This document shows, piece after piece, positions 5,958 to 38,356 of a stretch of DNA of 64,000 bases; position 1 is the first letter of the stretch; each line of letters begins with the position of its first letter. The notes beneath the pieces were generated by a model, which saw nothing but the letters and a program-made list of their open reading frames with translations, was not told the origin of the DNA and searched no databases. Both the position numbers and the translations under genes were made by a program. Location: NCBI GenBank assembly GCA_005223125.1, contig NJBH01000006.1, positions 64,001 to 128,000 of the forward strand. Direction: 5' to 3'. The DNA is from Promethearchaeota archaeon Loki_b32 (GTDB lineage: Archaea; Asgardarchaeota; Lokiarchaeia; Sigyniarchaeales; SOKP01).

Positions 5958-6887
5958 ATGGAAGCTATAGATTTCGAAAAAACTTATGATCTAATTGTAT
6001 TAGGGGGTGGACCCACTGCGATTGGATGTGCCATTTATGCTGCTCGATTCGCGATGGATGTACTGGTTGTTGGAAAAACTTTTGGTGGATTGATAGCGAC
6101 TACTCATATTGTTGAAAATTATCCTGCAATTACATCCATAAGTGGTCAAGGATTAATGGATATGTTTAAAGATCATATGGACTCACTTAGTATCCCATAT
6201 ATATCAGATCAGATACGCAGTATTGATAAAGTTGATGATTATTTTGAACTTCGTTCCTTCTTTCAGAAATTTAAAGCACATTCAATTTGCATAGCAACTG
6301 GTTCAGAAAGACGGAAATTAGGTATACCTGGAGAAGAGGAATATACTGGTCGAGGTGTTTCATATTGTGCCACTTGTGATGGTCCCTTTTACAAAAATAA
6401 AGTAGTATGTGTAATAGGAGGAAGTGATTCTGCTGCTAAAGAAGCGCTGTTTTTAGCACAAAACACCAAAAAAGTATATATTATTTATCGGGGAGAAGAT
6501 ATTAGAGCTGAACCTATAAACAAAAAACGTGTATTTGAAAATGAAAAAATAGAAATTATCTACAAAACTAATGTTGTTGAAATAAAAGGGGAAGGGAATG
6601 TAAAATCTGTAGTTTTTGATAATGATATCGAACTCGTTGTTGATGGTGTGTTTGTTGAGATTGGTTCAATTCCTAATTCTGATTTAGCAAAACGTATTGG
6701 TGTAGAAACAAATGAAAAAGGAGAAATTAAAATAAATCGTAAGTCAGAAACAAATATTACTGGTATTTTTGCTGCAGGAGATGTTGCTGATGCCCCTTTT
6801 AAGCAAGCAATTACAGGAGTTTCTGAAGGAGTAATAGCTGCATACTCTGCTTTTGATTATGTTAAAGAAATGAATATAGAATATTAG
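5958..6887 (+). CDS. trxB: Thioredoxin-disulfide reductase
   Basis: GGGP FAD motif, 'GRGVSYCATCDG', 'GIFAAGD'. ATG 5958 follows the PDO2 stop. Confidence 0.93.
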   Translation: MEAIDFEKTYDLIVLGGGPTAIGCAIYAARFAMDVLVVGKTFGGLIATTHIVENYPAITSISGQGLMDMFKDHMDSLSIPYISDQIRSIDKVDDYFELRSFFQKFKAHSICIATGSERRKLGIPGEEEYTGRGVSYCATCDGPFYKNKVVCVIGGSDSAAKEALFLAQNTKKVYIIYRGEDIRAEPINKKRVFENEKIEIIYKTNVVEIKGEGNVKSVVFDNDIELVVDGVFVEIGSIPNSDLAKRIGVETNEKGEIKINRKSETNITGIFAAGDVADAPFKQAITGVSEGVIAAYSAFDYVKEMNIEY

Positions 6888-6947
6888 TAGTATTTTTTTC
6901 TTTTGATTTTTAGTTAAACTTTAAAAAAGAGTGAAAAAAAAGGAAAT

Positions 6948-7262
6948 TTATTCAATATTTATTTCAATACTATGAAATTCGGGCTCTTTGAACGGTACTT
7001 CAATCTTTAAAAGTCCATTTTTATAAATTGCTTTTGTTTCTTCTGGTTTAATTAGACAGCAAACACCATAGGAACCTATATAAACAGTGTCTTCAGTTTC
7101 TCCTTTAATGAAAAAACTGTCATCATGCATTTTAAGCTTAATTGATTCTTTCTCTACTCCAGGCAGTTGTATTTCAATTTTATAAATGTTTTGTTCATCA
7201 TCAGCCCAAGAACACACTTCTGGTGACATTAAATACTTTTCTTCTTCTTTTACTTCAGACAT
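6948..7262 (-). CDS. Hsp20/alpha-crystallin small heat shock protein
   Basis: 'IQLPGVEKESI' and 'AIYKNGLLKIEVP'. Confidence 0.88.
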   Translation of the reverse strand: MSEVKEEEKYLMSPEVCSWADDEQNIYKIEIQLPGVEKESIKLKMHDDSFFIKGETEDTVYIGSYGVCCLIKPEETKAIYKNGLLKIEVPFKEPEFHSIEINIE

Positions 7263-7445
7263 ATTTTTCACTTCAAAGTTAAAATTATATTTAGATTTAA
7301 TTATTACTTCAACCAAAATAACCGATTTAAAAGTTCTTTCTATGGAATATTAAAGAAGGAGTGAATTTTCCTTAAAAATTAAATTGAAAATTTGTTTTTC
7401 CTTTAATTTAAAAATTTTTAAAAAATATTGAATCGAGGGACGCTT

Positions 7446-8357
7446 TTATTGAGGATTAAGTGTAGGAGATCTAGCTGACATAAGTTCTAATATTTTCTCC
7501 CAATATTCTTTTATTTCCCAGTTTTGTTTTGTTTTTATTTTTTCAGAGACTTCCTTTAATAATTCCCTAATTTTAAGTGAATCAAAATAAGTTAAAATTG
7601 GGGCAATCACAGATAACATATATTGTTTTTCTCCATATCTTTCATTTTTATCCGGAAATGAATCAAAAAATAGATAACCTTTTTTATCAATATTCTCAAT
7701 ATTAAGTAAAATACTTTGAGCTTTTGTGATTTTATCGTGTCCATAAATCGAAGTTGCAGCGTGGAACAATTGCTTGCCAATAGTGTTAATAGATAGGGTA
7801 CAATTTTCTTCAGAGGGATAACTCTGTTTTAATATTGGTCCTGCAACATCATCCCAATATACCATTAATAAACATAATGATGGTTGATCTTTATTAATAA
7901 TTGATGGATGCATTTCTATATTCAAGGATGAGAATATTTGTTTAATTTCCTCATCAATTTGATTGGATTTTTTATATCGAGCAATTTTACCAGAGATTGA
8001 AGCTAATAAATCTTCCTTTTTAAAAGGTTTTGTTATATAATCATCTACTCCTAACATTTTACCCAATCGAATATCTTCAGGAGTAGATTTTGCGGTTAGA
8101 AATAAGAAAGGAATACGACTCAATTTTGAGTTAGATGAAACAGCAGCAAAAAACTCATAGCCATTCATGACTGGCATCATTATATCGCTTATTATTATAT
8201 CAGGAACTTTCTCTAATGTCAAAAGCATTTTAAGTGCTGTTTTACCACTAATTGCTGTGATTATATTGTAGTCACTTGCTTCAAGAATAAGTTTTAGATT
8301 AAATAAAATATCCTCGTTATCATCAACAACCATTAACAAGGGCTTTGAATCTGACAT
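7446..8357 (-). CDS. Response regulator receiver fused to a longin/uDENN-like C-terminal domain
   Basis: REC motifs 'VVDDN', 'ISDIMMPVMNG', 'FLTA', 'DDYITKPF'. C-terminal 'LMVYWDDVAGPILKQSYP' resembles the longin F/W-D-x3-GP motif. Confidence 0.85.
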   Translation of the reverse strand: MSDSKPLLMVVDDNEDILFNLKLILEASDYNIITAISGKTALKMLLTLEKVPDIIISDIMMPVMNGYEFFAAVSSNSKLSRIPFLFLTAKSTPEDIRLGKMLGVDDYITKPFKKEDLLASISGKIARYKKSNQIDEEIKQIFSSLNIEMHPSIINKDQPSLCLLMVYWDDVAGPILKQSYPSEENCTLSINTIGKQLFHAATSIYGHDKITKAQSILLNIENIDKKGYLFFDSFPDKNERYGEKQYMLSVIAPILTYFDSLKIRELLKEVSEKIKTKQNWEIKEYWEKILELMSARSPTLNPQ

Positions 8358-29368: not shown

Positions 29369-30415
29369 CTAAATAATGATCAATTTATCTTGAATTGGAT
29401 CATTTAGTAAAATCCTATAATATTCCATATCATCTTTAAACCTTGCTTTTTCTAATTTACCTTCAACTATTACCTTTTCACTTTTTTTTACATGCTCACA
29501 AAAACGACCTCTAAATGAATTAATTTCATTTATGTCTCTCATATCTATATCTTTTGCATTAAAATTGCTTTTAAGAATTTTTATGGGATTTATTTTATAT
29601 GAACAAGGAGTAAAAATTGAATCTTTTGAATCTAAAATATCGGCTTTGAGTCTAATTCTTCCAATATTTTTATATTGATAATCATAAAAATTGCCATTCC
29701 AATCTTTAGGACTTTTAATATATCTTATAAAAAAATCATGGTTCATATGCTTGCCTTGATGTAACTTGCGTTGTTCACTCCTAAGAAAATCATTAAAAGG
29801 AATATCAGATCCACCAACTCTCCACTCATAATGAGATTTATACTCATCTAGGTTATACTTCCGACAGTCATTTAATTCATTAAATATTTTTACTAATTTC
29901 TCTTGAAATTTTAAACTTGTTTCTGTACCGTATATTATTATATCAATATCAGATTTTTCAGTATTTAATCCTACCATTGTTGATCCTGTTATACCTATTG
30001 ATTTTTCAGGAAGATTGCCTTCAGTTATAAATAAATTACATAAATTTTTAGAACATGTTTCTATGTATGATAAATTATCTTTATCTAATAGGGTCTTAAA
30101 GAAACTTCGTGGAGTATAAATTTTTTTAATTTCTTGTATTTTGACTCCTTGGACTTCTAAGTCAATTTCTTTAGAATAAAAAAGGTAATCGGGATAATTC
30201 TCTCTCAAAAAGGAATATCGTTCATATAATTTATAGACTTTTTTAAAATGGATGCCTTTTTTTATCCTTTCTCCATCTGGATGGGGATAAAATCGTAAAA
30301 AGCAGATGATATAATCATTTGGATGTAGTAACCCTTTTACATCAAAAAACAAATTATCATTTTTTGTTTCTATATAATCTCCTTCAATTCCTTCAATATT
30401 TTTCATGAATTTCAC
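29369..30415 (-). CDS. Predicted archaeal Pol-beta-superfamily nucleotidyltransferase
   Basis: 'GITGS...G....SDIDIIIYG', 'VKGLLHP', C-terminal OB-like 'VEGKLE'. Confidence 0.8.
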   Translation of the reverse strand: MKFMKNIEGIEGDYIETKNDNLFFDVKGLLHPNDYIICFLRFYPHPDGERIKKGIHFKKVYKLYERYSFLRENYPDYLFYSKEIDLEVQGVKIQEIKKIYTPRSFFKTLLDKDNLSYIETCSKNLCNLFITEGNLPEKSIGITGSTMVGLNTEKSDIDIIIYGTETSLKFQEKLVKIFNELNDCRKYNLDEYKSHYEWRVGGSDIPFNDFLRSEQRKLHQGKHMNHDFFIRYIKSPKDWNGNFYDYQYKNIGRIRLKADILDSKDSIFTPCSYKINPIKILKSNFNAKDIDMRDINEINSFRGRFCEHVKKSEKVIVEGKLEKARFKDDMEYYRILLNDPIQDKLIII

Positions 30416-30426
30416 AATATTAGTAA

Positions 30427-31563
30427 TTAATACTTTGAAGGCGTCTTAGTTTTAATTTTTGAGGGAGTCTTCGATTTAATTTTTCTTAAATCTCTTTCAA
30501 ATTGTCTTTTTTCATTTAGAAATCGTTGCTTATCTTTTTCTAATTTATTTCTTTCACGTTTAATAATATTTTTTTCGCTTTCTAAGTTTGATTTTCGTTT
30601 TTCTAATTGTCTATATTCATTATTTAATCGTTTAAACTTTTCCTCTAAATTGGGAATTTTCCGGTTTAAGGACTGATACTTATTTTCTGCAGCTGGAACT
30701 TTTCTTTGTAATTCTTTTAATCTTGCCTCTTGTTGGCGTCTTCTTTTCTCCAACTCATTTGCATTTCTATCAGCTTTTTCTCTGGTCTTTTTTAGATCAA
30801 CTTTTTTCTTGTTAATCTCACGAGCTTTTAGATCTAAGTCTTGTTTTTTATATCGAGTTTTTTCTCTTTCTTCTTTTAATTTTTTCTTTTCATCAGAAAT
30901 ACGATTTTTTTCATCAATAATCTCTCTCCTTAAGCTATTGATTTCCCTATTTAAACGATCTCTTTCTTTATTTAGATCTTTAATTTCATTTCTTAAATCC
31001 ATTAATTTATCTTCCAAATCATTAGTAGTTCTGTTCAAGGCATTTTCTCTTCTTTCCATACCAGGAAGTTTCGTTTTAATTTCCTTTAAGCGATCTTCTG
31101 TTCTTGCCTTTTCTTTCTCTAAATATTTTTTTTCATTTCCAATTTCTTCTCTAAGTTTATCTAATTTATCTTGAAATCTTTCCAATTCAGCATTTTTTTG
31201 ATCTAATTCATCATTCTTTCTTCTGATTTTATCTTTAAATTGCCGTTCTTTTACATTTAACTCGTTTTTTTGTTGTTCTATTTCATTTTTCGCCACTTTT
31301 AATTCATTTCGCAGATTATCTCGTTGTTCAAGAAGATTTTTAACTTCAAATTCTCTATCCTTTCTTTTTCTTTCAAGATCCTCAATATTATACTTATAAG
31401 CCTCAATTTGATTAATTATTTTTTCCCATTCACTCTTCTCTTTATCCAGTTTGATTCTTTCTTTTTTTATTTTCTTAAGTAATTTTTTTTCTGGAATTGT
31501 TTCAAGTTCTTCCTCAGGTGTTTTTTCCCGAATTTCATATTTAGGAATTGGTTTGTCATCCAT
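30427..31563 (-). CDS. Long coiled-coil protein with an internal ~123-aa repeat and a KTPSK tail
   Basis: About 330 aa of K/E/R/L heptads; C-terminus KSKTPSKIKTKTPSKY. Confidence 0.8.
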   Translation of the reverse strand: MDDKPIPKYEIREKTPEEELETIPEKKLLKKIKKERIKLDKEKSEWEKIINQIEAYKYNIEDLERKRKDREFEVKNLLEQRDNLRNELKVAKNEIEQQKNELNVKERQFKDKIRRKNDELDQKNAELERFQDKLDKLREEIGNEKKYLEKEKARTEDRLKEIKTKLPGMERRENALNRTTNDLEDKLMDLRNEIKDLNKERDRLNREINSLRREIIDEKNRISDEKKKLKEEREKTRYKKQDLDLKAREINKKKVDLKKTREKADRNANELEKRRRQQEARLKELQRKVPAAENKYQSLNRKIPNLEEKFKRLNNEYRQLEKRKSNLESEKNIIKRERNKLEKDKQRFLNEKRQFERDLRKIKSKTPSKIKTKTPSKY

Positions 31564-31769
31564 GTTATTTCTACAATTCACTTTATTTTTTAATTAAATT
31601 ATATAATTATTGACTCTAAAGTGTTTGCATTCAAATTGCAATATTTAACTTTTTCTAACTGTTAAATCCATTTATATATTATAGTTTCTATTATTTTCAT
31701 ACTTAAAGTACTTAAAACTATAAAAATTCTCTATATTATAAATAAACCTATAATAACAGTGGTTATATT

Positions 31770-32192
31770 ATGAGTTTTGATGAAGAGGAAGAGTTTGACG
31801 AGGAATTCGACGAAGAAGATCTCGATGAAGAGTTAGATGAGCAGGATGAAGAAGAATTTGAGGATGAATTAGAAGAACCTTCTATAGTAGCATCTACTGA
31901 AGAGCCTGAATCTAAAACTCCAGCAACTAAAGTAATAGCTGAAGGGAAAAAAATTTCAGTCTATTTTATGTCAACTATAGGTCCCGGTGAAAAAAAACAA
32001 AAACTAGTTATAAATACAGGATATAGTGTTGGAGATATTAAGGAAACAGTAGCAAATTTATTTGGATTAGATCCTGCTGATTTTCATTTATCATCAAGTG
32101 GAATTACAATGGATGAGAGCTCATCTTTAAGAGATTATAATATAAGTGATGGAGACGATATACTTCTAATTCCCGCTAGTACAGCGGGCTAA
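31770..32192 (+). CDS. Ubiquitin-like modifier 1 (long acidic N-tail, ends -PASTAG)
   Basis: Beta-grasp pattern 'SVGDIKE.V', 'L...G..MD....L.DYNI.DGD.I.L'; terminal Gly. Confidence 0.88.
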   Translation: MSFDEEEEFDEEFDEEDLDEELDEQDEEEFEDELEEPSIVASTEEPESKTPATKVIAEGKKISVYFMSTIGPGEKKQKLVINTGYSVGDIKETVANLFGLDPADFHLSSSGITMDESSSLRDYNISDGDDILLIPASTAG

Positions 32193-32242
32193 ATTTCTAG
32201 AAAAAGTAAAATTTTCAAAGCAAGGTTTTATTTTCTTCACTT

Positions 32243-33031
32243 TTATTTTTTTTTTAAGGGAATCAGCGCAATTTCATCATCATCATCAATTTTATAATCT
32301 TTAATTTGTGAGTTTTCATTTAATAATATCCCCCCAGAAGAGAGAAGAAAGTCTTCTAAATTATAATCAAATAATCTCCCAATTCTCTCTTTAATTGGCT
32401 TTATTATCTCAGTTGTATCGAGTATAATTATCTTTGTTTTCTCGCCTGGTTCAAGTAAAGATCTTACATAAACACGGATCCGGTCTTCCATTTCAATCAG
32501 TTTCATAGGTTGTGTATAAAATACCTCCTCATCAGTGTTATCTCTGGTCTTCAACATATTTTCGATTAACGTTTTTCTCTCATTTTCATCGAAATATAAC
32601 ATTTCCCGGATAAACAAGATTTTGTCCACTTTTGATAAATCTAATAGGTTTATTTTATCTAATTCTTCTTGACTAAAAACTGAAAAGATATATTTATCGA
32701 TTATTGGTATATCCTTATAGGACTCGCTGGATTCAGTATAATCTTCTATTAAAGGTATGGCATCAATGTAATCTTCAATGATATCAACTTGTTTCCGTTT
32801 AATTAATTTTGAATCAGGTAAGATTTTTTTTTTCTTTATTTTTTCATCCCAACTACCTTTAGACTGTATAACTGTATATACTGTACTAGTAGATAAGATC
32901 GCAACGCTACCTACTGTTAGAATGAGAAATAAGAAGGAATTTTCTATACTGAATAAGAAAAATAGGAAATAGACCAAAATACAAACAGTATAAAGAGCGA
33001 TGACACTTAAAATTCTATATTTATTTCTCAT
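32243..33031 (-). CDS. 2-TM membrane protein with a C-terminal Ubl domain lacking the terminal Gly
   Basis: Two N-terminal TM helices. The C-terminal 'PGEK...IKE.I..LF....DF.LSSGGI..NE....DY.I.D.D.I.LIP' is paralogous to the flanking Ubls; ends LKKK. Confidence 0.85.
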   Translation of the reverse strand: MRNKYRILSVIALYTVCILVYFLFFLFSIENSFLFLILTVGSVAILSTSTVYTVIQSKGSWDEKIKKKKILPDSKLIKRKQVDIIEDYIDAIPLIEDYTESSESYKDIPIIDKYIFSVFSQEELDKINLLDLSKVDKILFIREMLYFDENERKTLIENMLKTRDNTDEEVFYTQPMKLIEMEDRIRVYVRSLLEPGEKTKIIILDTTEIIKPIKERIGRLFDYNLEDFLLSSGGILLNENSQIKDYKIDDDDEIALIPLKKK

Positions 33032-33110
33032 AACTTTTTAATTAGATTATTTTCTGAATTTAAAATATATATTTTTTCTTATAAAGATCTATGGAATAAT
33101 TTTGGAGTTT

Positions 33111-33788
33111 TTAATGTGACACACCCTGAATTGATTTTCTAACTTTAGAATAGTTTTTTGTATCTAATTGGAATACAATACGATTTTTAATTTTTTCAAT
33201 TTTTATTAATTTCAAATCTGTTAAAATGTCTATGTATTTTTTGATGGTACTATGATTCTTTTTCAAGCTGTTTGCAATTTCTGTAATTTTTAATGTTTTA
33301 TTTTCTTTTTTCATAAAGTTAATTATTTTTTGGACAATTTTCTTTTTTAAATAATAATACAACTCGTCAAGTTCTGGATTTGAATCAAATTTAAAGAAGA
33401 TTCTATGATTGTTAATTTGTTTTGATCTTACAAATAGGAATTTTTCTAAACATGATAAATGCCATAAAGCTTGATTACTTCCCATATTTAGAGCTCTCAT
33501 TATCTCATTAATATTAGAAGGATTCTTTTTTATATAGTTATAAATCTCATTTCGTTTTGGATGTTCAATAATATTATTTTTCATTAATCTTGTTCCTGGG
33601 ATAATAACACGTTTTTTTATTAAATCTTTTAAAATTAATTCAATTCTATTCTCATTTATATTTGGATTATATCTAACTCTATTATTTATATACGATATGA
33701 TTTCTTTGATTGAAAAGAACGTTTTTTTTGTTAAATACTCTTTTACTAATTCAAGAACGACAGATTTTGCATTATCCAGAGAACTCAT
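33111..33788 (-). CDS. Multi-winged-helix transcriptional regulator
   Basis: 'KRNEIYNYIKKNP..INEI.R.L......WHL..L' and a second HTH 'ITEIANSL.....IKKYI..L'. Confidence 0.82.
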   Translation of the reverse strand: MSSLDNAKSVVLELVKEYLTKKTFFSIKEIISYINNRVRYNPNINENRIELILKDLIKKRVIIPGTRLMKNNIIEHPKRNEIYNYIKKNPSNINEIMRALNMGSNQALWHLSCLEKFLFVRSKQINNHRIFFKFDSNPELDELYYYLKKKIVQKIINFMKKENKTLKITEIANSLKKNHSTIKKYIDILTDLKLIKIEKIKNRIVFQLDTKNYSKVRKSIQGVSH

Positions 33789-34055
33789 GAGCCTATACTT
33801 GTATTATGTTGATTTTTCTTGTTAAGTAATTATATATTCTCTCTAAAACAACATTTTTTGATTAATATATATTAATAGGCATTCATACAATTTATAATAT
33901 AATTTCTAAAGAATCCTAATTTGCTCCTTCTCTTATTTTTGATAAAACCATTAAAAACTTCAAAATCATTCCAAAGGGTTTTATTATATCTTTTTAATGC
34001 GATTTTATTAAGTTTACAAAAATAAAAAAATAAAAAAAAAAAGGATGTGTAATAA

Positions 34056-34391
34056 ATGAGTTTTGAAAATGAATTTGATGAGGATTTAGTTGGGAAGGAG
34101 CCTGTAAAATCTAAAACTCCCGCATCTAAAACCCCTTCAACAGGAAAGAAATTGACTTTGTATTTCATGTCTACTATTGGACCCGGTGAAAAGAAGGAAA
34201 AATTAACAGTAAATAACAATAATCGTGTGAGTGATATTAAACAAACACTTGGAAATTTATTTGGACTTAATCCAAACGATTTTCATTTATCATCTGGAGG
34301 TATTACAATGGATGAAAATAGCTACTTAAACGATTATAGTGTAAGTGATGGCGATGATATTCTTTTGATCCCTGCGAGTACTGCGGGGTAA
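34056..34391 (+). CDS. Ubiquitin-like modifier 2 (ends -PASTAG)
   Basis: 59/81 identical to the Ubl1 core by manual alignment; first gene of the E1-E2-JAB-RING run. Confidence 0.9.
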   Translation: MSFENEFDEDLVGKEPVKSKTPASKTPSTGKKLTLYFMSTIGPGEKKEKLTVNNNNRVSDIKQTLGNLFGLNPNDFHLSSGGITMDENSYLNDYSVSDGDDILLIPASTAG

Positions 34392-34470: not shown

Positions 34471-35706
34471 TTGGTGATTATATTGGGAAAGAGTTCAGAT
34501 TTTTTTAGTAGAGGCCTGACATCGGAAGAGAGAAATTTATACGACCGCCAATTTAGGCTTGAGGGATGGTCTCAGAAACTAGTAAAAAACACTCGAGTTT
34601 TGATAGTTGGAGTTGGGGGATTAGGTTGCGAAATCGCAAAAAATCTGGCAATGTTAGGAATAGGACATTTAGATTTAGTAGATTTAGATATTATTGAACA
34701 TTCAAACTTAAATCGCCAAATTTTATTTACGGGTGCTAAATTGGGGGAACCTAAAGCAATCGTGGCGGCAAAAAAATTAACTGAAATAAATCCAAATATT
34801 AATGTAAATGGTTATCATACTTCCTTAGAGCGCCTAGATCCTGCAATATATAGAGCTGCTGACGTTATTATTGGAGGTCTTGACTCCATGAACGCTCGAT
34901 TGAATTTAAACGCTCAATGTGTAAGATTTAGGAAACCACTAGTAGATGGAGGTGTGTCAGGTTATCATGGTCATGTCTACACGATTTTTCCATTCAAAAA
35001 TGCATGTTATGAATGTAACCCGCTCCCTATAGCTGAAAGTGATGAGATGGCTGCATGTACTGTAGTAGGAATACCAAGAAAGAGGATTCACTGCATTTTT
35101 AAAGGAGATATGGCCTTTAAAGAAAAATTCGATAGGGATCCTAATCCAAAAAGTGTTGTTGATATTAAATTCATTCAAAAAGTTGCTAATGAATTAGTAA
35201 ATAAACATAATTTTCTCCCGGAATATACTCAAGATGATATTGTAAAGATTATCGATAGACATGATCCAGGAATAATTACCATAAATGCTGTCATTTCAGC
35301 ATTACAATCTCATGAAGCTATAAAAATCCTTCATTGGAAAAAAGGACATATAGGTTTAGGTGAACCAATAAAAACCTATGTTATTTTCAATGCAATGACA
35401 ATGATGTTTTATCATATTGAAAAAAAAAGAAATCCAGAATGTTCCCAATGTGGAAAAAAAGTTCGAAGATTTGTCGTGAAATTAAGAGCACGTTCTCCAT
35501 GTATTAATATAATCAAAGTATTAGAAAAACATGGTTTTAAGTTAGATCCTGATCTCGAACCCGTAATAACATTATTGGATTTTAATGATATTAAGATGAT
35601 TGATCTAGAACAGAATCCAATTGAAAATGGTTTAAGAAATTACGAATTTATGACTGCTGCAGGGTTTAAAGATGGAGAAATTTTTGTAACCTTAAAATTA
35701 AAATAA
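34471..35706 (+). CDS. Ubiquitin-like activating enzyme E1 (Uba2/Uba3-like)
   Basis: 'YDRQ', GVGGLG, 'DLDIIEHSNLNRQ', Zn pairs CYEC and CSQC, catalytic 'ACTVVGIPRKRIHCI'. Start may be TTG 34483. Confidence 0.93.
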   Translation: MVIILGKSSDFFSRGLTSEERNLYDRQFRLEGWSQKLVKNTRVLIVGVGGLGCEIAKNLAMLGIGHLDLVDLDIIEHSNLNRQILFTGAKLGEPKAIVAAKKLTEINPNINVNGYHTSLERLDPAIYRAADVIIGGLDSMNARLNLNAQCVRFRKPLVDGGVSGYHGHVYTIFPFKNACYECNPLPIAESDEMAACTVVGIPRKRIHCIFKGDMAFKEKFDRDPNPKSVVDIKFIQKVANELVNKHNFLPEYTQDDIVKIIDRHDPGIITINAVISALQSHEAIKILHWKKGHIGLGEPIKTYVIFNAMTMMFYHIEKKRNPECSQCGKKVRRFVVKLRARSPCINIIKVLEKHGFKLDPDLEPVITLLDFNDIKMIDLEQNPIENGLRNYEFMTAAGFKDGEIFVTLKLK

Positions 35707-35788: not shown

Positions 35789-36316
35789 ATGAGTATAAGA
35801 AGTAGTAGAATCTCGCAAGATTTTGCGGGATTAAAAAAATTGTATAAACAAGGAACTATTATTCAGTTAAAACCATTTAATCCAAAAAGAAAGAGTATTG
35901 ATCATTTAGCAATTACTATTAAAGGACCTAAAGGTACTGTTTATGCAGGTGGTCTTTTTAAATTAGAAATGAAATTCCCTGCTCAGTATCCTAGACAACC
36001 ACCTTTTGTAAGACTGCATACTCCAATCTGGCATCCAAATTTTTGGGCAAAACCAAGTGAATATAAAGGACAAAGAAATATTTGTTTAGCATTAGTAGAT
36101 CCCTCCCTAACTGGTAAAAGAGGAGGGTGGAGTCCATCAAAAACAGCGGTTACCGTTGTTCAAGCAATAATTGCTATGTTAAACACACGAGGTAAATATG
36201 TAAATCCTACCGATGTTTTTAATAAAAAAGCTGCGATAGAGATGATGAAAAATCAGAAGTTTTTTGAGAAAAAAGTGAAGAATCTCGTGAAAAAGTATGC
36301 AAATAAAAAATGGTGA
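35789..36316 (+). CDS. Ubiquitin-conjugating enzyme E2
   Basis: 'GPKGTVYAGGLF', 'FP.QYP..PP', 'WHPNF...NICL', 'WSP'. Confidence 0.95.
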   Translation: MSIRSSRISQDFAGLKKLYKQGTIIQLKPFNPKRKSIDHLAITIKGPKGTVYAGGLFKLEMKFPAQYPRQPPFVRLHTPIWHPNFWAKPSEYKGQRNICLALVDPSLTGKRGGWSPSKTAVTVVQAIIAMLNTRGKYVNPTDVFNKKAAIEMMKNQKFFEKKVKNLVKKYANKKW

Positions 36317-36324
36317 TTACTTTA

Positions 36325-37137
36325 ATGGAGAATAAAGAATTAGCCAATAGTTCAATCAAAGACGTAATTAAAAAGAAGATAAAAGAAAAAATAAAACAAG
36401 AATTACTAGATGAAATATGTGAAGAACTTAAATTAGAGGAAGAAGAATTAACAGAAGAGATTTGTTCAATGCTTACTAAAAAAACCTCTGCCAAACCAAT
36501 AATAAAACTTTCTAAGATACCTACCGTCAAAATAGAAGAGAAAAAGCATGTTGAAATACAAATAGAAGAGGAAATACAAAAAGAAGTTTATATTTCAGTA
36601 AAAAGTATACTTAAAATAGCAAGTCATGCGCTTAAATATGCAAATTCTAAGATTCGAAGAGAGAATTGGGTGGAAGTTATTGGGCTTCTAGCAGGAAAAT
36701 TAGATAAAAACGAAATACTCCATATTGAAGATGCTTACCCAATGGGGCATGGAACGGCTGTATATGCCGAAATTAAAGATTATAAGAATTATGTGAGGGC
36801 ATTTAAAGATATTAAAAAACAGAGATTATTTATATGTGGATGGTATCATAGTCATCCTTCATATGGTCTTTTTATGAGTAATGAAGATATGGGCACTCAA
36901 GCAAGATATCAAACACTTTGGGATAAAGCAGTTGCTCTTGTTGTTGATCCATACCTAATTGACGGTACTTCACCAGGCTTTGAGATTTATAGCGCTAATT
37001 TGAAATCAAAAACATGGTATCCATTATTATACGGGATTAAAGGGTCATTAGATGTAAGAATGTTACCTGAAATATTGAAATTTATGCATCCCCTCATTGA
37101 AGGAAAGCCAGTATATCTTGAATATGATGAAGATTAA
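36325..37137 (+). CDS. JAB/MPN+ (JAMM) metallo-isopeptidase, Rpn11/CSN5-like
   Basis: 'EVIGLL.G', 'GWYHSHP.YG..MS..D', 'ALVVDP'. GGTGA SD overlaps the E2 stop (ORF is open from 36310). Confidence 0.93.
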   Translation: MENKELANSSIKDVIKKKIKEKIKQELLDEICEELKLEEEELTEEICSMLTKKTSAKPIIKLSKIPTVKIEEKKHVEIQIEEEIQKEVYISVKSILKIASHALKYANSKIRRENWVEVIGLLAGKLDKNEILHIEDAYPMGHGTAVYAEIKDYKNYVRAFKDIKKQRLFICGWYHSHPSYGLFMSNEDMGTQARYQTLWDKAVALVVDPYLIDGTSPGFEIYSANLKSKTWYPLLYGIKGSLDVRMLPEILKFMHPLIEGKPVYLEYDED

Positions 37138-37165: not shown

Positions 37166-38356
37166 ATGGCAAAATTTAAATCGGTAGTAATTTTTCTAGC
37201 GATATTTTGCTTAATTGGTATAATCCATGGTGCTCTTCTAAATTCAATTAATGTTTTTGTAACTTGGTTGTTAATTGGAATTTGGTTAATTTATTCTTTC
37301 AAAGTTCTAAAAAATATCAAACAATATCGTGAATTTAATTCTCCTCATAATACTGCTTTTTTTACCATTGGTCCTGTTTTAATGGGAATTTTTTATTCAG
37401 TGTGGAGTAATTTCACAGGTTTATTAGGAGAAAATCTTTTAGAAAGTACAGATTTATATTTAAGTTGGTGGAGTATACTATTTGGATTTCCCTATATATT
37501 ATATGGTTCGATTTCTTTATACCGTTGTTTTAAAAAGTATAATGTAATACATTTTAGAAGGAAATCAATAAAAGCACGCACATTTGGTTTTATTTTAGGA
37601 ATCTCCATTCTCCTGTTTATAATTATATACTGGATAAGTTTTTATTCAATTATAGACTTTTATGAATCTTTAATAACACCTCTCCATTTTTTAATAGATC
37701 TCAATCTATTAATATTACTTATCAGTACTATACTACTATTAATAGTCCCTGGCTTGTTTGGTGCTCAAACTCCATTACCTCAACTAACTAGAGATTACAT
37801 AGCAAGACGTACAAGCAGATTAAACAATTTAACATCACCCACCCCTAATCGACAAAGACAAACTGTTCGTACTACAACTAGATCATCTCCAACACCTTCA
37901 ACAAGAACAGTTGCTCGCACAACAAGATCAGTTTCTCGTTCTGCAAGATCAACGCCTACAACAAATAGATATTCTACAAGCTCTAGAGAAAAAAAAACTA
38001 CTCAAACTGTAGGCAGAAGAGCAACAGGACCAGTGCGAAGAAAAAAAACTGTTACAAAAATAAGCAATTTCAATTTATATAAACCAAAAGCAGCACGTCT
38101 TTCAACAGAGGATTTTAAATGTATTTTTTGTTTTAAGTTACCAGAATATCCTAAAGATAATGGTAGAGGAATAATATTGTGTCCAAAATGTAAATACCCC
38201 GCTCATGCTGACGAATTTAAAGATTGGCTTCAAAGTTCTAACCTATGTTCTCGGTGTAATACACCAATTCCCTCAAGCTTTAGAAGAAATCCTAAAACCA
38301 TAAGTGTAAAAAATTATATAATCGTCATTAAGCATTTTGTAAGTAATAGGAGATGA
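37166..38356 (+). CDS. Polytopic membrane protein with a C-terminal variant RING finger (putative E3 ligase)
   Basis: About 6 TM helices, an S/T/R-rich linker, then CIFC-x16-CPKC-x4-H-x2-E-x3-W-x6-CSRC. Confidence 0.8.
   Translation: MAKFKSVVIFLAIFCLIGIIHGALLNSINVFVTWLLIGIWLIYSFKVLKNIKQYREFNSPHNTAFFTIGPVLMGIFYSVWSNFTGLLGENLLESTDLYLSWWSILFGFPYILYGSISLYRCFKKYNVIHFRRKSIKARTFGFILGISILLFIIIYWISFYSIIDFYESLITPLHFLIDLNLLILLISTILLLIVPGLFGAQTPLPQLTRDYIARRTSRLNNLTSPTPNRQRQTVRTTTRSSPTPSTRTVARTTRSVSRSARSTPTTNRYSTSSREKKTTQTVGRRATGPVRRKKTVTKISNFNLYKPKAARLSTEDFKCIFCFKLPEYPKDNGRGIILCPKCKYPAHADEFKDWLQSSNLCSRCNTPIPSSFRRNPKTISVKNYIIVIKHFVSNRR

Follow-up and report, generated by a model that had tools for sequence, protein, structure and literature searches.

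We analyzed a 64,000-nucleotide stretch of DNA (the window) from the Promethearchaeota archaeon Loki_b32 (GenBank contig NJBH01000006.1, positions 64,001 to 128,000 of the forward strand) and focused on two genes for paralogous ubiquitin-like (Ubl) proteins of the ubiquitin family, Ubl1 and Ubl2. Both open reading frames (ORFs) were present on the plus strand where the initial annotation had placed them (Table 1), in a genome with a guanine-plus-cytosine content of 27-33%. Ubl1 and Ubl2 were 64% identical across 111 amino acids (aa) by BLASTP (E value, 5e-51), a similarity far beyond chance. Our recount of the final 81 residues returned exactly the figures given earlier, with 59 of 81 identical, and the two proteins shared the C terminus DGDDILLIPASTAG, which is followed directly by a stop codon in each gene. 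The N-terminal tails were of unequal acidity, as had been noted, with an Asp/Glu/Phe/Leu segment of about 37 residues in Ubl1 versus about 12 acidic residues in Ubl2. Residues 1-37 of Ubl1 carry a net charge of -26, and its entire 59-aa tail carries -28; the acidic segment of Ubl2 has a net charge of -5, and a linker of Lys, Ser, Thr, and Pro comes after it. Little charge resides in the folded cores (-4 in Ubl1 and -3 in Ubl2), and the whole proteins have net charges of -32 and -5, respectively. Ubl1 and Ubl2 are separated by two opposite-strand genes, so the pair cannot share a transcript and would be transcribed separately, which agrees with the earlier proposal as far as gene geometry alone can tell.

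Sequence and structure comparisons placed both proteins in the ubiquitin family. The two window Ubls matched the Pfam ubiquitin model (PF00240) at 26.4 and 25.8 bits, which is marginal against the curated cut-off of 25.4, and all 39 members of a family alignment reaching 33% identity matched the same model, with a best E value of 2e-11. The family profile matched ubiquitin without gaps from K11 to L67. Extending this register to the C terminus paired Gly111, Ala110, and Ala107 of Ubl2 with Gly76, Gly75, and Arg72 of ubiquitin, and Gly82, Lys62, and Ser79 fell opposite Gly47, Lys27, and Ile44. AlphaFold2 models built with family alignments predicted for both proteins a beta-beta-alpha-beta-beta-3(10)-beta grasp with core predicted local distance difference test (pLDDT) scores of 85-91. 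In the Ubl1 model, the beta-grasp spanned residues 61-135 (core pLDDT of about 90) behind a disordered tail of residues 1-59, and DSSP assigned no secondary structure ahead of residue 61. In the tails, pLDDT fell under 50 throughout residues 1-27 of Ubl2 and over most of the 1-47 stretch of Ubl1. The top Foldseek match was the ubiquitin of Caldiarchaeum subterraneum (CsUb; 6FNO/6FJ7; E value, 6e-8; template modeling score, 0.81-0.83), with ubiquitin variants, ISG15, SUMO1, NEDD8, and Hub1 next in the ranking. VIA-align, which paired model residues 33-111 with ubiquitin residues 1-76, gave Z scores of 13-14.7 and root mean square deviations of 1.1-1.3 Å to ubiquitin, ISG15, and NEDD8. These VIA-align rows are tied, and the fold alone cannot choose among ubiquitin, NEDD8, ISG15, and SUMO; the sequence does. 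Our models and structural comparisons against ubiquitin, CsUb, NEDD8, and ISG15 thus support the beta-grasp fold on which the initial annotation depended. Together with the sequence comparisons, they identify Ubl1 and Ubl2 as ubiquitin-family beta-grasp modifiers of a known kind of archaeal ubiquitin operon.

The C terminus sets this family apart from Gly-Gly ubiquitins, since Ubl1, Ubl2, and their relatives end instead in an invariant Ala-Gly. We observed that 108 of 120 close homologs stop at STAG and that 11 more retain Ala-Gly followed by one to three residues (YF, KA, IE, KL, K, RLI, KY, or YLV). In the 39-sequence alignment, the only invariant columns were G82, P106, A110, and G111. Among 43 divergent representatives (50%-identity clusters with the motif at the C terminus), 19 end at AG and 24 carry one to six extra residues. 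Two database proteins were head-to-tail precursors of three and two whole units, with two extra residues at the end, and in this respect resemble polyubiquitin precursors. Each tandem unit has its own acidic tail, KSKTP linker, core, and [HF]S[TQ]AG, and because every unit carries the tail, the tail would be part of the mature tag. The terminal Gly is therefore conserved among homologs, as is the Ala before it, and this conservation combined with the beta-grasp fold upholds the prediction of a conjugatable modifier family. Ala-Gly is a fixed trait of the family, with Ala110 at the position of ubiquitin Gly75, and the invariant dipeptide, short extensions, and tandem forms read together as the signature of a processed, conjugated tag. 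Bacterial BilA, ATG8, ATG12, and UFM1 also lack a Gly-Gly end, and its absence here is a variant feature that does not disqualify a ubiquitin-family modifier. The last 49 residues of Ubl2 contain no Lys or Arg, and tryptic digestion of Ubl1 would leave a 19-residue C-terminal remnant (DYNIS...STAG).

A natural contrast to the free forms is provided by the membrane protein encoded between Ubl1 and Ubl2, which has a Ubl domain of the same family at its C terminus and a basic end in place of the terminal Gly (Table 1). Throughout the genus this gene keeps its place between Ubl1 and Ubl2, and its homologs end LIPLRRKEK, LIPSRKEKK, and similar. The membrane Ubl protein is predicted not to be conjugatable. 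Membrane-anchored paralogs have swapped STAG for a basic tail, and the C-terminal pattern of the family as a whole fits selection for an exposable terminal Gly. The adjacent gene for a candidate winged-helix regulator also belongs to this arrangement in at least one further lineage, as a 60% identical ortholog adjoins the membrane Ubl in another genus.

Downstream of Ubl2, and in one operon with it, genes of the same direction encode an activating enzyme (E1), a conjugating enzyme (E2), a JAB/MPN protease, and a RING-like membrane protein (Table 1); the catalytic motifs are intact. The E1 has a P-x-C-T-type catalytic segment, and its Protein Data Bank (PDB) matches were to UBA2 (1.8e-40), UBA1, and UBA3 (residues 35-330) in the range of 1e-40 to 1e-36, and to UBA5 at 1.5e-16. 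The best matches of the E2 were Ubc15 and UBE2R, with Ubc9 about 1000-fold weaker. The JAB/MPN protein is likely the processing and deconjugating enzyme of the system, and the RING-like membrane protein is likely its ligase (E3). We compared 11 distant loci from other Asgard families and genera. A Ubl gene lay directly upstream of an orthologous E1 gene (44-71% identity) in 10 of these 11 loci, and E2, JAB, and RING genes stood alongside in 10 of 10. The architecture of the RING protein was the same in 11 of 11, and in all 12 loci including that of the window, an S/T/R/K-rich linker with a net charge of +14 to +25 occurs just before the RING. The co-conservation of a polyanionic arm on the tag and a polycationic linker on the presumed ligase suggests electrostatic docking. 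Overall, members of this widespread Ubl family occurred in 123 of the 301 Asgard genomes sampled, with a concentration in nine families, and gave 833 protein clusters.

Table 1. Genes and protein segments of the Ubl1-Ubl2 locus; positions are those of the window.
Feature	Position	Strand	Evidence
Ubl1, long-tail ubiquitin-family modifier, 140 aa, ends PASTAG-stop	31770..32192	+	ORF; Pfam ubiquitin 25.8 bits; AlphaFold2
Acidic segment of the Ubl1 tail, aa 1-37, net -26; D/E plus F or L, the latter mostly four residues apart	31770..31880	+	
Ubl1 linker, aa 38-59, with conserved ESKTP motif	31881..31946	+	Pro of SKTP at least 90% conserved (family alignment)
Membrane protein, 262 aa, with C-terminal Ubl domain of the same family lacking the terminal Gly (ends LIPLKKK)	32243..33031	-	
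Protein with two ArsR-type winged-helix domains, candidate regulator	33111..33788	-	Pfam HTH_5, HrcA_DNA-bdg
Ubl2, short-tail ubiquitin-family modifier, 111 aa, heads operon	34056..34391	+	
Canonical E1, 411 aa, with ThiF adenylation domain, C-terminal extension, and AACTVVGIP as the catalytic-Cys segment	34471..35706	+	Pfam ThiF 1.4e-61; start uncertain (TTG at 34471)
E2, UBC fold, HPN motif and catalytic Cys	35789..36316	+	Pfam UQ_con 3.6e-26; PDB matches to canonical E2s
JAB/MPN metalloprotease, 275 aa, intact JAMM motif HSHPSYGLFMSNED	36310..37137	+	Pfam JAB 1.5e-15
Membrane protein with polybasic S/T/R-rich linker (+25 per 100 aa) and C-terminal RING-like zinc finger	37166..38356	+	

The long-tail and short-tail isoforms are maintained together. 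All 24 genomes sampled from the genus, and a sister genus as well, have the same gene order, in which the membrane Ubl and the winged-helix gene follow a long-tail Ubl and precede a short-tail one. Ubl1 orthologs were present in at least 18 genomes of the genus. These findings establish the two isoforms of very different negative charge proposed by the initial annotation as a conserved pair. Tails of the long-tail orthologs range from 25 to 63 residues and are 55-60% Asp or Glu, with Phe or Leu at mostly each fourth residue; 108 of 182 gaps between hydrophobic residues in these tails have a spacing of 4. Tandem Repeats Finder detected no DNA tandem repeat in the Ubl1 tail region. We therefore rejected recent slippage as the origin of the tail, and the Phe/Leu spacing appears to be kept at the protein level. 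The cores of the long-tail type are also distinguished from those of the short-tail type by diagnostic substitutions (KKQKL and ETVANLFGLDPAD), and since these are common to the long-tail orthologs, the duplication must be old. The opening ten residues of short-tail Ubls (MSFDEFDEDL) had a mean top-residue frequency of 0.92 versus 0.88 for the core among 61 close homologs. Free Ubls of distant families likewise start with acidic residues around F-E-E-L/I, followed by [IV]KSKTP. The suggestion that the tail adds negative charge to targets is plausible. The genome also encodes a third free copy of the short-tail type, a 112-aa protein 89% identical to Ubl2 (contig C70:2563-2901), with no conjugation genes nearby. 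Relatives have two to three free short-tail copies, two of which are in tandem in one genome (G022:C23).

Further evidence on the organization of the N terminus came from fusion proteins. Ubl fusions keep the KSKTP linker and the core, and another N-terminal domain stands where the acidic start was. HerA-type ATPase-Ubl fusions were continuous ORFs of 484 and 503 aa in two genomes, and additional database fusions with the same end join the Ubl to Cdc48_N plus VWA, to a Roadblock domain (a weak Pfam match under its cut-off), or to a zinc-ribbon-like CxxC segment, for which Pfam gave no match. We infer from these architectures that the linker belongs to the conjugation handle and that the N-terminal part is an exchangeable module. 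As side observations, the two HerA/DUF87-type fusions (L045:10075-11583 and L049:2264-3715) end SSRAG and ASTAG, and the HerA-Ubl gene sits upstream of the Ubl-E1 operon in the slot filled by long-tail Ubl1 in the window's genus.

These fusions allow a broader, tentative reading in which a fixed handle of KSKTP, beta-grasp, and Ala-Gly might covalently deliver differing effector payloads to targets. The payload would be a short acidic F-x-x-L motif, a polyanionic tail of about -28, or, in relatives, a HerA-type ATPase, Cdc48_N plus VWA, Roadblock, or a zinc ribbon. Docking of the acidic module would occur on the RING protein's polybasic linker, and Ala-Gly would insulate the pathway from a Gly-Gly system. 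We regard this combination of proposals as rather unlikely. If true, diversified ubiquitin-like tags, SUMO-like arms, and orthogonal pathways would predate eukaryotes.

A Gly-Gly system does occur in the same genome. The PF00240 search of the genome detected only four proteins, all of them members of the Ubl1-Ubl2 family. Contig C36 (L040:3587-5958), however, encodes a JAB protein (164 aa), an E1 (294 aa), an E2 (187 aa), and, in minus orientation, a Ubl of 91 aa that ends VIGG followed by RYL and is present in 19 of 24 genomes of the genus. Profile comparison of this 91-aa protein with the Ala-Gly family gave no significant match, and it is thus a separate lineage. The differing C-terminal dipeptides of these co-resident systems would fit insulation of one pathway from the other. 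Two Roadblock-like/GTPase genes lie just upstream of the contig C36 set.

Considering the observed fold, family, invariant Ala-Gly, pro-forms, synteny, and tail conservation, we conclude with good confidence that a ubiquitylation operon of a Lokiarchaeial (Promethearchaeota) type uses Ubl1 and Ubl2 as paralogous modifiers of the ubiquitin family; for this operon we infer the following cascade and tail function. The tags would be made in mature form, as the stop codon directly follows Gly. By homology with the Caldiarchaeum system, the adjacent E1 would adenylate Gly111 and then take the tag on its catalytic Cys, from which the tag would move to the Cys of the HPN-type E2, and the membrane-anchored RING protein would direct it to substrate lysines. 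The JAMM protease would remove the tag and, in relatives, trim the extensions of one to six residues and cut tandem precursors after Ala-Gly. Ala110 probably helps to separate the pathway from the co-resident Gly-Gly Ubl/E1/E2/JAB system. The disordered N-terminal arm, predicted to stay on the mature tag, would consist of a KSKTP linker tied to the core and an exchangeable acidic F-x-x-L/I module, which is short in Ubl2 (multicopy and at the operon head) and expanded to a charge of about -28 in Ubl1. This arm may serve in docking, perhaps to a reader protein or to the polybasic linker carried by the RING protein, and the two isoforms could thereby mark targets differently.

The initial annotation had instead suggested a possible relation of the family to the UFM1 and SUMO branches, and we consider membership in, or descent with, either branch very improbable. 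The single terminal Gly with its P-x4-G spacing and the disordered SUMO-like arm invite the comparison, and the LIP-x4-G spacing singled out as Ufm1-like is indeed present; its proposed link to Ufm1 did not hold up, since it equals the ubiquitin Leu71-Gly76 spacing with Pro at position 71, and the C-terminal tail has the length of that of ubiquitin. All 39 aligned members matched Pfam ubiquitin, whereas none matched the Ufm1 model (PF03671), to which Ubl2 gave no match at E values up to 10. A genome-wide Ufm1 search matched neither Ubl gene and returned a lone 14-bit match elsewhere, and a search of the genome for the UFC1 family gave no match. UFM1 and URM1 were also not in the top 50 of Foldseek or VIA-align, which is no proof of difference. 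Weak matches to the SUMO-like Rad60-SLD model occurred in 28 of 39 members, but the window proteins scored 18 bits against a cut-off of 23.8. Although the best PDB match of the E1 was the SUMO E1 subunit UBA2, UBA1 and UBA3 were nearly tied with it; the E1 is of the canonical Cys-domain type, with UBA5 worse by 24 orders of magnitude, and the E2 has the HPN motif and is not of the Ubc9 type. With an AG end in place of Gly-Gly, the likeness to SUMO comes down to the disordered N-terminal arm, a resemblance only. On the basis of Pfam assignment, E1 type, E2 type, and the Ufm1 and UFC1 searches of the genome, we rejected kinship with UFM1.

The genome does encode a 795-aa fusion of DDRGK, E3_UFM1_ligase (UFL1-like), PCI, and a VPS28 C-terminal domain (contig C22, L067:6235-8622), which could be taken to favor a UFM1 link. 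This type of fusion has been noted earlier in Asgards (10.1101/2020.10.19.343400) and was found in 59 of 68 genomes of the window's family. However, we did not find the UFL1-like protein in families f18 (0/11), f26 (0/21), and f32 (0/2), despite the presence of the Ubl there. The Ubl is distributed far more widely, which argues that it does not depend on the UFL1-like protein, and we rejected this protein as a rescue of the UFM1 connection. Even further from likely is that the proteins are sulfur carriers like ThiS, MoaD, Urm1, or SAMP, or noncovalent Ubl adaptors. Such a role would suit a beta-grasp protein with a C-terminal Gly encoded beside a ThiF-family enzyme, but the same conserved cluster holds E2, RING, and JAMM genes, the E1 has a conjugating-type catalytic-Cys segment, Pfam places the Ubls in ubiquitin and not in ThiS, pro-forms and tandem precursors imply processing for conjugation, and loss of Gly from the nonconjugatable membrane Ubl indicates that Gly is selected in the free forms. 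A more serious competitor concerns the arm alone: the acidic tail might have no specific partner and act as an entropic bristle that confers bulk charge or solubility, and Ubl1, as the more strongly charged version, would keep the proteins it modifies in solution or away from membranes and nucleic acids. The extreme Asp/Glu content, the variable length of ortholog tails, the disorder predicted by AlphaFold2, and the charge difference between the isoforms would all suit this explanation. Against it, the first ten residues are as conserved as the folded core, the Phe/Leu spacing of 4 is kept without DNA repeats, and F-x-x-L/I recurs in distant families. These three features favor a sequence-specific element over bulk charge, and we judge the bristle explanation to be unlikely while giving it real weight.

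Several observations count against our preferred assignment of Ubl1 and Ubl2 to an operon-encoded cascade with a docking arm. Each catalytic step is read from homology and gene order. AlphaFold2 gave no confident tail conformation (pLDDT below 50), and neither cis nor trans docking is structurally supported; docking of the tail on its own core in cis was looked for specifically and dropped on this result. The pairing of acidic tail and basic linker is a co-occurrence only, and either element could bind membrane or nucleic acid. Finally, contig C30 (L041:3901-4450 and 6773-8356) encodes an E2 and another large E1, which has 527 aa and is the third E1 of the genome, and either large E1 might charge either isoform. 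The contig C30 E1 has the same catalytic-Cys motif as the window E1 plus a large insertion, and we saw no Ubl gene within 11 kb of it. The E2-like gene on contig C30 consists of two ORFs, of 61 and 136 aa, and may be a frameshift.

Comparison with eukaryotic modifiers showed partial likenesses to each of several branches. NEDD8 has Ala at ubiquitin position 72, as do the Ala-Gly Ubls by profile and VIA-align mapping, and the operon E1 aligns full-length with UBA3. SUMO and the Ala-Gly Ubls share a disordered N-terminal arm. Unlike NEDD8 and SUMO, the Ala-Gly Ubls lack Gly-Gly, their arm is acidic with a conserved motif, and the E1 is one gene and not two subunits. UFM1 has a single terminal Gly preceded by Pro-x4, a feature that the Ala-Gly Ubls share, whereas the two differ in Pfam family and in the types of E1 and E2.

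Closer parallels were found among prokaryotic systems. The ubiquitin cascade of Caldiarchaeum and its Rpn11 processing have been shown biochemically (PMC5654768, PMC6043591). That operon (CsUb, E1-like, E2-like, small RING finger protein, and CsRpn11; 6FJ7/6FNO) likewise clusters a modifier, single-chain E1, UBC-type E2, RING E3, and JAMM protease, and C-terminal trimming is needed there for CsUb and here for some pro-form members. In contrast, CsUb ends in Gly-Gly plus a 9-residue propeptide and has no N-terminal arm, whereas the family described here has an invariant Ala-Gly, mostly mature-form genes, a conserved acidic F-x-x-L plus KSKTP arm, paralogs with long tails or N-terminal domains, a nonconjugatable membrane copy, and a membrane RING protein with a polybasic linker. 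A Helarchaeial operon cascade has been reconstituted and modifies UEV-Vps23 (10.1101/2023.07.25.550441); both of these cascades, the only ones of this kind reconstituted so far, use Gly-Gly ubiquitins. The Asgard ubiquitins of Heimdall, Hel, and Odin lineages that are linked to ESCRT also operate in an Asgard E1/E2/RING cascade (PMC9192718, 10.1101/2023.07.25.550441). They differ in carrying Gly-Gly (GG plus SPKN in Hel), and the Ala-Gly Ubls do not lie beside ESCRT genes in the window, in a genome that also has a distinct GG-type Ubl set. A bacterial precedent for the dipeptide is BilA of the antiviral BilABCD system, whose mature end leaves an Ala-Gly remnant, is processed beforehand by a JAB-type deubiquitinase, and works with canonical-like E1 and E2 (PMC10557695). 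An Ala-Gly mature end would thus be compatible with this E1/E2 chemistry. BilABCD is a bacterial defense system that has no RING E3, the passages on it mention no acidic tail, and the likeness is one of description and not of sequence comparison.

We found no description of an Ala-Gly Asgard ubiquitin or of its acidic arm in the searchable literature, which is incomplete; features of the family that did not appear there are the invariant Ala-Gly, the acidic arm of two sizes, the tandem precursors, and the N-terminal domain fusions. Archaeal ubiquitin operons serve as models for the ancestor of eukaryotic ubiquitylation, and the biochemistry so far has been only on Gly-Gly ubiquitins. Our comparisons indicate that archaea already have paralogous tags that differ in their N-terminal arms, precursors with several tags in a row, and, within one cell, two or more Ubl pathways distinguished by their C-terminal dipeptides. 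The Ala-Gly family offers a simple system in which to study how an E1 discriminates among tags and what a disordered arm does on a ubiquitin-like tag.

As a last observation on the surroundings of the locus, the minus-strand neighbors upstream of Ubl1 encode a 384-aa K/E-rich coiled-coil protein (30427-31581) and a 348-aa protein with a nucleotidyltransferase domain (29369-30415).

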